A stretch of DNA of 64,000 bases, from contig CATLPG010000009.1 in the NCBI GenBank assembly GCA_950054195.1, positions 7,943 to 71,942 on the forward strand. Direction: 5' to 3'. Every line of letters starts with the position of its first letter. The stretch's first letter is position 1. Made by a program: the position numbers and the translations under genes. Below, one piece after another: positions 41,420-46,790 of the stretch. Under the pieces are notes generated by a model. The model made no database searches and was not told where the DNA came from. It worked only from the letters and a program-made list of their open reading frames with translations. The DNA is from an uncultured Saccharospirillaceae bacterium (GTDB taxonomy: Bacteria > Bacteroidota > Bacteroidia > Flavobacteriales_D > CAJJDF01).

Positions 41420-41641
41420 ATGACTAAAAAGAAATTTACATACAGCAAAATGACTTTCATTTTATCAGTAATCGGATTTATTGGAAGTATAGGATTTTAC
41501 TTAGGCGTATTAAGACAAGTATATGCAACACCAGACAATATTCAAGTAAAATCAATTGAATTAGAGAGAGAAAACAAACAGTTAAAATCGCAAGTAGAGG
41601 TATTAACCAAAATGGTTGAAGAATGCAATAGCAATGAGTAA
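41420..41641 (+). CDS. small single-pass membrane protein with coiled-coil tail
   Basis: A TM helix (MTFILSVIGFIGSIGFYLGVL) is followed by ELERENKQLKSQVEVLTKMVEE. It could be holin- or spanin-like, but nothing supports that beyond topology. Confidence 0.35.
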   Translation: MTKKKFTYSKMTFILSVIGFIGSIGFYLGVLRQVYATPDNIQVKSIELERENKQLKSQVEVLTKMVEECNSNE

Positions 41642-44600: not shown

Positions 44601-46790
44601 CTTTCCTATGAAGCACAAGAAGAGTACGAAAGAATCTCATCTAATATTAGAAAAATCTCAACTGGAATAACTATTTCGCCAATAGATGTTATTGTTCAGA
44701 AAATTGAAAAGGCAGGCTATTCTGTTGCAGAGGTCACAGGGAGGAAATTAAAATTACAACTCAACCTTAACTCTGGAATGGGGGTTATTGAAAATCGTAA
44801 AAAGATAAATACGAATGATGCCTTTAGAGAATTTAATGATAATGAAGTAGATGTATTATTGATTAATCAATCTGGAAGTACAGGAGCTTCCGCTCATGCT
44901 ATTGTAACCGATAAAGTATCTAATGCAGAAGTAAAGCAAAGAGTTATGATTGTTTTACAACCAGAGTTAGACATCAATACAGAAGTTCAAAAAAGAGGTA
45001 GAATTAATCGTACAGGTCAAATATTAAAGCCAATTTATGATTATGTAAACTCTGCTATTCCTGCTGAACAAAGATTAATGATGATGCTTCAAAAGAAATT
45101 AAAAAGTTTGGATGCAAATACCTCTTCAAACCAAAAACAAAGTAACAGTATTTTAGATGTTCCAGACTTTCTAAATAAATATGGAGATAAAGTAGTTGCT
45201 GAATACTTAGAGGAGAATACAGAAATCAATGATTTATTGGGGAATCCATTAAAGATAGGAACAGGATCAGAATTTAAAGATGGAGGTGCTCATAAAGTAT
45301 CAGGTCGTGTAGCAGTTTTATCCACTAAAATGCAAGAAGACTTTTATAAAGACATCAAAGAGCGATATGACACTTTAGTTGATTACCTAAAACAGTCTGG
45401 CGAATACGATTTGGAAGTTGAACAATTAGATTTAAAAGCAAAAGTAATTTCATCTAGTATTATAAAAGTTGGTAAAGGTGGGAATTCAAGTTTTGGAGAA
45501 GATAGTGTTTTAGAAAAAATAGAAGCTAATGTTTTAAGAAAGCCTTTTAGTGCAGATGAAGTTAAAAATTTGATTTATCAAGGGCTTGAAGGTCAGACTA
45601 CAGAGGGTTTAAGAGAAAAACTAACAAGAGAATACGAAACTTTTGTTGCTAAGAAATTAGCAGAAACTTTCCAAGAACTTGAATCAAGATATATGAGGTT
45701 GAAACGAGATGTTTCAAACGAAAAGAAAATACAAAAACTCATTCAAGCCGAAGACCCAAATGTTGCCCAAGCCATAGAAAAAAGAAAGCAAGAGTTAGAT
45801 GAAGCTTACAGAAAACGAGTTGCAGATGAAGATAAATCTGCACAAAATAAGAAGTCTTACATAAGAGGGTTATTCAAATATTTTGGAGTTGGAAAAAAGT
45901 TATTTTATCCTGTTCCAAGCTTTGATGGAACATCACAAAATCAATTAGCTATTTTTCTAGGATTTGGAATTGATAAAAAGAAAACAAACCCTTACGCTCC
46001 AAGTGCCATAAAACTAAAGTTTGCAATCGCTTCAAGTCAAAAGTATATTGCTATTCCTGCTAGTTACATTAAAGATATTAATGCTATTAAAGGTGCTAGT
46101 ATTGGCATTACTGATTATGATATAGATAAAAATATTGAACAGTGGAATGAGCAAATAAAATCAACAACTAAAAACAGGAGTATTCGCTACATAGTAACAG
46201 GTAATATTCTTCAAGCCTTTGCAAGTTTTAAAGGAAAATTAGTCAGTTATACAACTGATAATAATGAAATAAAAAAAGGAATACTTATGCCCGAACATTG
46301 GTCGGCTGAAACAGAAACAAAAGGAAAAGTAATTGTTCCTATTGCTAAAGCTACCAAGATTATTAAATCCATGAGTAATGGGTCATCTATTTTTGGAACA
46401 AATAACATTTCATTTTTCAAGTTATATGATAACCGATATAGAGTTTCTGTTCCTGCTTCAAGAAAAAAAGGTGGGGAAATCTATTTGAATGAAGGCTTAC
46501 TCAAATTAGTTGAAAACAATGTGTTTGAAAAAGTAGGTTCGCAAATGACTACTCATGTTCCTTTTGAGAATATAGAGTCCTTTTTAACAATTCTTCAAGA
46601 TAGTTCTGGAGTTACCATTAGTGTAACACAAAATCAAATTGATGCAGTAGGCTTAGTTGTAACCAAAAACAAAAAAAGAGTAAAAATTCAAGCTCCCCCC
46701 AAAGAGGTTATTCCAAAAATGAACACCAAAGTATTGAAACTAAAAGCAAACGCATTAAAGCTAAAACTAGAGCTATTGTCTTTTGCATAG
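41634..46790 (+). CDS. giant fusion protein: RadC-like JAB domain, N6-adenine DNA methyltransferase and Strawberry-notch-type SF2 helicase, with about 600 aa of unassigned C-terminus
   Basis: The JAB motif HNHPSG lies at 41949-41966 with a preceding RadC-like region. The MTase has motif I (FEPSAGNGLL) and motif IV (ITNPPFG, about 42672). The helicase has IIGDQTGIGKGRVAA (about 43437), IIMDESHNSSG (about 43812), LLINQSGSTGASAH and QKRGRINRTGQ. The ATG at 41634 overlaps the upstream stop (ATGAGTAA). Confidence 0.8.
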   Translation: MSNQNRHIEKKINVPELKIQYNRDNSKSIDRSISSSYDASKFFRSLFNTGELELRESLYVMFLNRANYPIGYYQHSIGGIDSTVADIRIIIGIALKALATGVIIAHNHPSGRVLASQSDIDLTKKLKEASSKFDIQVIDSLIIGKDEYNSLADSGLMGVNSPYPLPEFKPLIIQNDFVGYIRKNLKERNKLTRPQTEKQANRFGIIDRTKIKELTELAIVLEAREIAQSQSSVFEKFNNIKNLYEAQTNLSFRTSMSILLQQYSTPAPIGYLMGLFCGVNNSSKSLFEPSAGNGLLTITANPEQVIVNEIDPVRYENLTKQGYKEVMKIDASIQFQGMRKKFDAVITNPPFGRLDTGRNFDGFQIKKLDHLMALNALKTMKDNGKSAIIIGGHTKWDEKKRIQKGALRVFYNYLYKHYHVIDVIPISGKHLYSRQGTSFNTTLILINGRKEKPRGVAPVKNQQLANPVTDYNELFTRIQQNMKTLKQHKVASKESLRKKALKMKAMLLAQQLGAPYVPASDSCFVLDTHVPDAMEFEMHQAIARIKEDVGGDIDNFVRHRLGYQTKAQLCKALSAEQIDAVGMAIYNIEALSQAVIIGDQTGIGKGRVAASIIRYATQQDITPIFLTEKANLFSDIYRDLSAIGSAQLKPFIVNARGSKTQIKDENGNVIYEALSKPEQDNAFKNRKVPSGHDFVVATYSQFNSAQKKPLKPQFLLEIAKGSIIIMDESHNSSGSSNTGIFMQSVLARTSGAVFLSATFAKRPDNMPIYAMKTAISEANMSTEELVEAISKGGVALQEVLASQLVAEGQMIRRERTYEGIEVNYITLQDKAKEHKAIADNITTIVRDIIAFQANHIDERVDELDSIAVAEGKEVNLREGTTEGGVDNQPYFSKVFNVINQMLFSIKAEAVADKAIARLKQGKKPIIAFASTMGSFIEQMENSSGLSVGVGDTVKADFSIVLEKGLDGVMRYTETLPNGEKEYKKFDLTELSYEAQEEYERISSNIRKISTGITISPIDVIVQKIEKAGYSVAEVTGRKLKLQLNLNSGMGVIENRKKINTNDAFREFNDNEVDVLLINQSGSTGASAHAIVTDKVSNAEVKQRVMIVLQPELDINTEVQKRGRINRTGQILKPIYDYVNSAIPAEQRLMMMLQKKLKSLDANTSSNQKQSNSILDVPDFLNKYGDKVVAEYLEENTEINDLLGNPLKIGTGSEFKDGGAHKVSGRVAVLSTKMQEDFYKDIKERYDTLVDYLKQSGEYDLEVEQLDLKAKVISSSIIKVGKGGNSSFGEDSVLEKIEANVLRKPFSADEVKNLIYQGLEGQTTEGLREKLTREYETFVAKKLAETFQELESRYMRLKRDVSNEKKIQKLIQAEDPNVAQAIEKRKQELDEAYRKRVADEDKSAQNKKSYIRGLFKYFGVGKKLFYPVPSFDGTSQNQLAIFLGFGIDKKKTNPYAPSAIKLKFAIASSQKYIAIPASYIKDINAIKGASIGITDYDIDKNIEQWNEQIKSTTKNRSIRYIVTGNILQAFASFKGKLVSYTTDNNEIKKGILMPEHWSAETETKGKVIVPIAKATKIIKSMSNGSSIFGTNNISFFKLYDNRYRVSVPASRKKGGEIYLNEGLLKLVENNVFEKVGSQMTTHVPFENIESFLTILQDSSGVTISVTQNQIDAVGLVVTKNKKRVKIQAPPKEVIPKMNTKVLKLKANALKLKLELLSFA

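Follow-up and report, generated by a model that had tools for sequence, protein, structure and literature searches.

The DarB protein of phage P1 protects DNA in cis against type I restriction, for which a methyltransferase (MTase)-translocase model has been put forward, and it is the archetype of a dyad of MTase and superfamily 2 (SF2) helicase, the third most common component of the polyvalent proteins of phages and conjugative elements described by Iyer, Burroughs, Anand, de Souza and Aravind in 2017 (PMC5512222). The same study found MutS-I and RadA/Sms domains in polyvalent proteins of Bacteroidetes, Strawberry-notch-like ATPases "in a few instances", and RadC, proposed as a nuclease-like domain, within polyvalent proteins of the conjugative type only (PMC5512222). 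We describe here a protein of 1718 amino acids (aa), referred to as the giant, in which a RadC-like JAB domain, a gamma-class N6-adenine DNA MTase and a Strawberry-notch (Sbno)-type SF2 motor are fused, together with the ~20.6-kb integrative element that carries its gene. Both lie in a 64,000-nucleotide stretch (positions 7,943 to 71,942 of contig CATLPG010000009.1, assembly GCA_950054195.1, from an uncultured bacterium placed by GTDB in the Bacteroidota), and "the window" refers to this whole stretch, to which the coordinates below apply. The parts of the giant were as follows.

41634..46790, + strand: RadC-MTase-Strawberry-notch protein of putative polyvalent type, 1718 aa (open reading frame (ORF) listing, translation, homologues)
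41733..42101, + strand: RadC-like JAB domain, aa 34-156 (Pfam PF04002, PDB 2qlc)
42141..42407, + strand: conserved helical linker, ~aa 170-258, upstream of the MTase (conserved columns E197 to R224 of alignment A3)
42408..42923, + strand: predicted gamma-class N6-adenine DNA MTase, ~aa 259-430 (motifs, Eco57I, PHROG, DarB alignment)
43344..44129, + strand: Strawberry-notch SF2 ATPase N-lobe, aa 571-832 (Pfam AAA_34, ResIII)
44718..45422, + strand: Strawberry-notch C-terminal helicase lobe, aa 1029-1263 (Pfam Helicase_C_4)
45423..46649, + strand: conserved C-terminal module, aa 1264-1672 (representative clusters, AlphaFold2 (AF2) model)
46725..46784, + strand: C-terminal amphipathic Leu-rich helix, KVLKLKANALKLKLELLSF / LKLKANALKLKLELL, in relatives LELEAEALELELELL (AF2 residues 459-478)

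The ORF runs on the + strand without interruption from 41616 (TTG) or 41634 (ATG) to 46790, with 1724 codons from TTG, and translation from the ATG yields 1718 aa, as many as in a 97%-identical protein from the database. With 1724 codons in DNA of 32% G+C and hundreds of full-length homologues, it is not a chance feature. An earlier reading made from the letters of this DNA (the sequence-only reading) had claimed that one polypeptide joins RadC, an N6-adenine MTase and a Strawberry-notch helicase, and their true fusion in one gene was confirmed: RadC (PF04002), AAA_34 and Helicase_C_4 were assigned by Pfam, the JAB and Sbno assignments being above threshold, and the MTase was assigned by its motifs, with Eco57I below threshold. 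The motifs that it had quoted were all present (HNHPSG at 106-111, FEPSAGNG at 287-294, NPPF at 348-351, GDQTGIGKGR at 598-607, and DESH at 727-730), and each was invariant or nearly so in an alignment of 121 sequences, consisting of the query and its 120 best matches. Since the catalytic motifs were intact and conserved, all three enzymatic domains look active. Sequence and profile searches of the giant against PDB returned the RadC homologue 2qlc and, marginally, METTL5, and no Sbno-type structure. No PD-(D/E)xK, Mrr or HNH nuclease family was found in the Pfam scan of the giant, no zincin peptidase was embedded in it, and when Pfam was run at relaxed thresholds against the C-terminal 455 aa and two linkers, nothing but noise came out.

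The RadC-like head matched PF04002 with an E of 1.3e-30 and 106.3 bits (cut-off, 22.1) over profile positions 2-121 of 121, and PDB 2qlc with an E of 7e-12 by sequence and 5e-26 with a profile. The JAMM motif was complete (E56, H106-N-H108, S116, and D119) and was kept throughout, or almost throughout, the 105 aligned sequences that bear RadC. The NCBIfam equivalogs of full-length bacterial RadC, which include the N-terminal HhH, were missed (PRK00024 / TIGR00608: 94 bits vs 180, 80 vs 134), and these models aligned with their C-terminal JAB half only. The head is probably a hydrolase that depends on metal and has nucleic acids or nucleotides as its substrate.

In the MTase, motif X (YSTPAP, 263-268) with its TP motif was N-terminal, and motif I (FEPSAGNG) preceded motif IV (NPPF); the domain is predicted to be of the gamma type, as in DarB, EcoKI and TaqI. 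Motifs I and IV were invariant or nearly so in the 121 sequences, and T265, P266 and P268 were invariant in the 19-sequence alignment A3. Further support below threshold came from PHROG DNA-MTase families and from the METTL5 profile match (E 0.006). The linker upstream of the MTase (aa ~170-258), judged helical from its letters alone, occupies the position of LPD36 in polyvalent proteins, a domain of four helices with a GxGU motif that is N-terminal to the MTase (PMC5512222); it had no Pfam match and no clear GxGU motif, the LPD36 hallmark. The two helicase lobes matched AAA_34 (E 4.7e-20, 72.2 bits; cut-off, 27) and Helicase_C_4 (E 1.9e-22, 80.7 bits; cut-off, 30.5), the N-lobe containing Walker A (GDQTGIGKGR), DESH and SAT (756-758), and the C-lobe motif VI (QKRGRINRTGQ, 1119-1129). 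Among the 121 sequences, GDQTGIGKGR, DE(S/A)H, SATF (motif III) and QKRGR.NRTGQ were invariant or nearly so, and aa 1101-1150 were the best-conserved part of the protein (93% identity).

The last 600 aa had been left unrecognised in the sequence-only reading, starting from position 45000; this is residue ~1122 and lies inside the helicase C-lobe. Approximately 140 aa of this part belong to the Sbno C-lobe, and the truly unassigned stretch by Pfam is aa 1264-1718 (~455 aa), a conserved module whose fold matched nothing known. An exhaustive HMMER search with aa 1264-1718 against 1.84 billion representative proteins gave 1037 clusters at E<=1e-3, of which 183 reached E<=1e-30. The module reached the C-terminus in proteins of 1200-2400 aa and was internal in giants of 3000-5600 aa, where it ended at ~query residue 405 of 455. 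It is thus a regular travelling companion of the Sbno-type MTase-helicase, and no one-off appendage. No Pfam family was found in the C-terminal 455 aa, even at E = 5. The AF2 model of aa 1240-1718, built with 54 sequences (mean predicted local distance difference test score (pLDDT), 82), consisted of a long helical hairpin, a beta-rich domain, an alpha/beta domain, a disordered linker and the amphipathic Leu-rich helix, in this order; the hairpin was the least conserved part of the module, and the beta-rich domain held the most conserved motifs (NPYAPSAIKL, TGN(I/L)LQAF, and GKLVSYTT..KKGIL).

A winged helix-turn-helix at the C-terminus (SnoC-wHTH) is described for Sno-like ATPases. A Foldseek search of the C-terminal model against PDB and BFVD returned nothing at E<=1e-3, including no significant wHTH; matches to Tudor, Plus3, Spindlin and WYL-like barrels were not trusted, being weak, with a template modelling (TM) score of <=0.1 for a multi-domain query. 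The pattern of the terminal helix was conserved in alignments A1 and A3; proteins that end with the module had the helix, and phage giants with an internal module lacked it. The helix may act as a signal for docking or oligomerisation, and for the module as a whole we can offer guesses: DNA handling, coupling of MTase and motor, or docking of a partner via the terminal helix.

Among the candidates scored in a search of a 5.8-billion-protein collection, at least 937 proteins were homologous (E<=1e-10). The best 120 were 56-97% identical over ~98% of the length, most of them having 1715-1740 aa and the same RadC + AAA_34 + Helicase_C_4 content, and were annotated at source as "strawberry notch family protein", "JAB domain-containing protein" or "hypothetical protein". 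Relatives were present in at least 521 species genomes (one genome per species); by record title, the best 80 were nearly all Bacteroidota (including Crocinitomicaceae, Chitinophagaceae, Cyclobacteriaceae, Cytophagales, and Sphingobacteriales), with three metagenome bins labelled proteobacterial, and a metagenome scan added at least 448 further relatives. Gene order was compared in 80 genome and 80 metagenome loci, and RadC was counted in 63 of the latter. The N-terminal fusion, which had been regarded as unusual, is common: RadC-MTase-Sbno proteins of 1715-1740 aa made up 105 of the 121 aligned sequences, and RadC was present in 25 of the 80 genome loci and 22 of the 63 metagenome loci (~1/3). 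The sequence-only reading had also allowed for a common, already characterised restriction-modification (R-M) family; the family is indeed abundant but uncharacterised, and the giant matched none of 5027 PADLOC defence models at E<=1e-3.

Wherever RadC was present in these loci, it was fused to the giant and never a separate gene. RadC-plus and RadC-minus proteins were intermixed in the clade of the window protein, in which one pair with 89% core identity differed in RadC state and an 87%-identical relative of the window protein was without RadC. Longer variants (1820-2150 aa) had N6_N4_Mtase, MutS_I or Methyltransf_31 added at the same end. RadC is an optional head, gained or lost repeatedly.

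Relatives on mobile elements were found by tblastn of the giant against plasmids and phages. Among the plasmids, 2573 records matched, of which 1738 were typed conjugative, with homology in the core (aa ~200-1665), and ten records covered >=80% of the query. These included Persicobacter pPP10 (49% identity) as well as plasmids of cyanobacteria, Yersinia and Pseudomonas, and the proteins were annotated only as strawberry-notch proteins, for which literature searches found no characterisation. Among the phage records, only Bacteroides phage BS-TP4 covered the core, and P1 was missing from the matches; PHROG 14770, a profile of 3427 positions, matched query aa 718-1557.

The giant is a core gene of an integrative element with the following main features.

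30760..51412, no strand assigned: integrative element, ~20.6 kb (host flanks, conserved gene order; ends approximate)
33097-34848, + strand: 583-aa core protein with Cys-rich GIDCDCMSVF and basic tail KKKSTKRRSTTKKRTKKTRRKSPVARASRIKK
35568..36275, + strand: 235-aa protein, jelly-roll-like beta-sandwich (AF2 model, fold matches)
40936..41412, + strand: Dam-type orphan adenine MTase, immediately upstream of the giant in the variable slot (PF05869, PHROG 111, PADLOC "orphan methyltransferase")
46819..48294, + strand: RecA-like ATPase, 491 aa, P-loop GKPKMGKS at 347 (weak AAA_24 and AAA_25; PHROG 6891 "ATPase")
48330-49496, + strand: patatin-like phospholipase cargo between the ATPase and the integrase (weak PADLOC "phospholipase effector")
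49772..51373, + strand: right-end large serine recombinase (integrase) (Pfam Resolvase + Recombinase)
51338-51412, - strand: tRNA-Met (tRNA scan; the integrase ORF runs 36 nt into it)

The left flank contained heavy-metal efflux genes and a Fur-like regulator ending at 30716, and the right flank tRNA-Met and glycosyltransferase genes from 51338. The integrase ORF overlaps tRNA-Met, and a second tRNA-Met, 77% identical, lies 99 nt further on (51437-51511, - strand), which suggests integration at or in a tRNA-Met gene. Searches for att-like repeats at the bounds of the element gave chance-level matches only, as expected for a serine integrase. The gene order was kept from 97% to ~56% identity of the giant, in fetched syntenic loci of Fluviicola, Flaviaesturariibacter, Lishizhenia, Lacibacter and Chitinophaga as well as in many metagenome-assembled genomes, and in part on the Persicobacter plasmid pPP10. 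From left to right, it comprised small helix-turn-helix (HTH)-like genes, small membrane proteins and the 583-aa protein with its very basic tail; proteins of 200, 235, 142, 151, 105, 252, 250 and 295 aa; a 224-aa lysozyme-like protein (an Amidase_2 gene in relatives), the variable slot and the giant; and then the ~490-aa RecA-like ATPase, variable cargo, and a serine or tyrosine integrase. Approximately 12 core genes had no Pfam or PHROG annotation, and scans of the element proteins with both found no relaxase, type IV secretion system (T4SS), terminase, portal, MuF or HK97-capsid protein.

The RecA-like ATPase gene was located directly 3' of the giant at each of the 53 genome loci with complete flanks, and at 65 metagenome loci. 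The N-terminal 330 aa of the ATPase are basic, helical and of no recognised type, and aa 142-257 weakly matched the PADLOC model of a Type IV restriction enzyme. The Dam-type MTase of the variable slot had no homologue in the 80 genome loci or in the first related set, and at most one in the 80 metagenome loci; a 97%-identical relative had a C5-cytosine MTase in this slot (contig L114, 8837-9784), and the slot elsewhere held unannotated ORFs of 60-275 aa. The patatin-like phospholipase was found in few related elements, and others carry KAP NTPase or DUF4365. In the 583-aa protein, a conserved N-terminal domain is followed by a long stretch of low complexity, a hydrophobic segment and a tail of extreme basicity at the C-terminus. 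This protein gave no family and no PDB match; the ATPase and the 235-aa protein likewise found nothing by PDB sequence search, and no paralogy was detectable between the 142-aa and 151-aa neighbours. The contigs of two relatives (L114, 23,545 nt; L115, 20,688 nt) ended at or within ~120 nt of the integrase gene, so that these assemblies break at the boundary of the element. This is suggestive only; it would fit several insertion contexts or an excised form, but no circular overlap was seen in 18 whole metagenome contigs.

To the left of the element, the window contains a heavy-metal resistance region (3712-23755) with a 1231-aa resistance-nodulation-division (RND) pump, a multicopper oxidase, an OEP protein, a P-type ATPase with HMA/HMBD, a CusB-like adaptor with HMBD and DUF3347, a second P-type ATPase, and a 1289-aa Peptidase_C25 (gingipain-like) protein. 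An AcrB/CzcA-family pump appears split at 25563-29870 (- strand): the ORF at 27366-29870 corresponds to profile positions 1-821 of 1021, and that at 25563-27212 (- strand) to positions 879-1020, joined with an outer-membrane-factor (OEP) domain. The arrangement is either a frameshift/pseudogene or an unusual fusion of RND pump and outer-membrane factor.

By analogy with DarB, the reading that we favour, and to which we give roughly even chances, is that the giant is a polyvalent establishment/anti-restriction protein working by translocase-driven self-methylation against restriction. We infer that the DNA methylated is the element's own, that the outcome is anti-restriction, and that the action is timed at entry. 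When the DNA of the element enters a new cell, or starts replicating, the giant would load onto it, and the ATP-driven Sbno motor would carry the methylase along the duplex; many adenines would be methylated fast and with low sequence specificity, and the element would be shielded from the restriction of the recipient in a P1 DarB-like manner. RadC would be an optional second "warhead", the RecA-like ATPase an obligate partner, and the upstream slot sometimes an extra orphan methylase. Several observations argue for this reading: the domains have intact motifs, and the MTase is of the DarB/EcoKI/TaqI type; the heads are swappable (RadC present or absent, N6_N4_Mtase, MutS_I), which is the modular pattern of polyvalent proteins; orphan methylases (Dam and C5-MTase) are adjacent; no known defence or R-M model was matched; and the giant, at a fixed position among the core genes of the element, has homologues on plasmids and in a phage giant. 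Other points weigh against it. The function of the family rests on analogy, and the similarity to DarB is limited to ~150 aa, nothing aligning outside the MTase; the motor of DarB is SNF2-rel_dom/Helicase_C, and that of the query AAA_34/Helicase_C_4. The Pfam Eco57I match of the MTase (aa 312-424; 23.8 bits) was just under the cut-off of 25.3. The argument of co-delivery with the DNA, usual for polyvalent proteins, is unsupported here, because the element has no portal, terminase, MuF or T4SS. Furthermore, a 195-kDa protein that takes up a quarter of the element and is paired with an ATPase could equally be replication or recombination machinery.

This last alternative, in which the giant and the ATPase are the DNA-processing machinery of the element (origin remodelling, branch migration, or strand marking in the course of replication, circularisation or integration) and anti-restriction is a side effect at most, appears unlikely to us. 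It would account for the constant pairing of the two genes, which are the sole P-loop proteins of an element with no other recognisable replication protein and are located between a putative structural/lysis block and the integrase, and RadA/Sms-like RecA domains have been proposed to manipulate incoming DNA in polyvalent proteins of Bacteroidetes (PMC5512222). However, SNF2/Sbno-type motors are duplex translocases and not replicative helicases (PMC5512222), the core also occurs on plasmids and in a phage giant, that is, in replicons with their own replication genes, and a mechanical role alone leaves the invariant methylase site unexplained. A single-chain R-M or exclusion enzyme (Type ISP/III-like), with RadC as nuclease, the MTase for self-marking, the motor for translocation and the C-terminus for target recognition, would serve the resident element to exclude competing phages or elements; we regard this as quite improbable. 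The combination of a hydrolase, a gamma MTase, an SF2 motor and a large C-terminal domain does resemble single-polypeptide R-M, RadC has been proposed to be nuclease-like (PMC5512222), the patatin-like phospholipase cargo is a typical type of defence effector, and the ATPase has its weak match to Type IV restriction, but approximately 2/3 of the orthologous loci are without RadC and then have no recognisable nuclease. Moreover, none of the PADLOC models was matched, the giant is a fixed core gene and not variable cargo, and its plasmid and phage homologues sit where anti-defence, not defence, is expected. A transcription or nucleoid remodeller, the Sbno motor clearing proteins or RNA polymerase from element DNA in a RapA-/Sbno-like manner to turn on the genes of the element, and methylation serving as an epigenetic mark for regulation, is very improbable: Sbno/SNF2 ATPases do act on protein-DNA complexes, with RapA recycling RNA polymerase (PMC5512222), and small HTH-like regulators are present at the left end of the element, but nothing specific points to this role, which leaves the anti-restriction-like heads and the orphan methylases unexplained.

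The giant also marks an unclassified integrative element of Bacteroidota, in which almost all other genes are dark matter and one is viral jelly-roll-like. Among the small core genes, that of this 235-aa protein was the most conserved, and none of its 1604 homologues had an annotation. Its AF2 model (pLDDT, 73) showed an eight-stranded beta-sandwich behind a helical N-terminus, and the best PDB fold matches were, with modest scores, jelly-roll capsid/penton proteins of tailless viruses: EhV-201 (probability 1.0, E 3e-4), FLiP penton (E 7e-4), SPV1 (TM 0.41/0.51), SH1 and PBCV-1. According to this model, it may be the capsid protein of a tailless virus. Together with the small membrane proteins, the amidase/lysozyme genes, the integrase, and the lack of tailed-phage and conjugation genes, the jelly-roll protein is the basis for a tentative suggestion, doubtful as it stands, that these elements (17-21 kb) form an undescribed family of tailless jelly-roll viruses or virus-like elements of Bacteroidota, possibly membrane-containing, with giant + ATPase as the hallmark. 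None of 18 whole metagenome contigs (7.8-20 kb) had a terminal overlap indicative of a circular form, and no circular permutation of the gene order was found in the 160 loci, so that there was no sign of an episomal or virion form. A survey of double jelly-roll (DJR) viruses mentions no methylase-helicase element of such a kind (PMC5894146). If the suggestion is true, a small virus devotes a quarter of its genome to a 195-kDa anti-restriction/genome-processing machine. This widespread unclassified element, maybe a tailless jelly-roll virus, is a more intriguing lead than the fusion itself.

Among known systems, the comparison with DarB and the MTase-helicases of mobile elements, already made in the sequence-only reading, proved to be of the right kind, in that the MTase aligns with that of P1 DarB and core homologues occur on plasmids and in a phage. 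DarB (2255 aa) also combines a gamma-class N6-adenine MTase and an SF2 translocase in one polypeptide encoded by a mobile element; the MTases are 27% identical over 147 aa (pairwise E, 3e-4), have TP, EPSAG.G and N.PFG in common, and both match Pfam Eco57I. DarB differs in having no RadC, and darB lies beside the portal gene, its product being packaged in the head, whereas no packaging genes were seen here. The plasmid "strawberry notch C-terminal domain-containing proteins" share the MTase-Sbno-C-terminal core (26-49% identity over 64-86% of the query); those checked, including a Yersinia example, are without RadC and have different neighbouring genes, and pPP10 also has homologues of three other genes of the element. 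In gp3 of phage BS-TP4 (5391 aa), homology to the core extends over query aa 198-1647 (36% identity), the homologous region being interior, and the gene is located immediately before the portal gene of this tailed phage; gp3 and the PHROG 14770 giants are three times larger than the query and lack both the RadC head and the terminal amphipathic helix. Eukaryotic Strawberry notch (Sbno1/2) belongs to the same AAA_34 + Helicase_C_4 family, at the level of domain family only, and is a transcription co-factor of the nucleus that has neither MTase nor RadC. Three other candidates were set aside: M.EcoGIX/M.BceJIII, small single-strand MTases without helicase, provide an analogy only; the F. columnare prophage fF4 is an unrelated Mu-like myovirus; and the "jumbo phage-transduced islands" are unrelated Pseudomonas islands with stand-alone RadC.

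The polyvalent class is defined by a neighbourhood of packaging genes (portal, MuF, terminase) or of T4SS/relaxase, and the element has neither; the giant resembles this class in its several unrelated enzymatic domains, the MTase-SF2 dyad and modular head-swapping. By itself, the protein adds little new, as one more polyvalent MTase-helicase family. On the other hand, an abundant and sharply defined family is an entry point for the weakly supported DarB model of translocase-driven processive protective methylation, and the natural orthologues with and without RadC (87-89% core identity) allow a ready comparison for the role of RadC/JAB. On its domain content, the giant fits as a new, abundant member of the known polyvalent MTase-helicase class.

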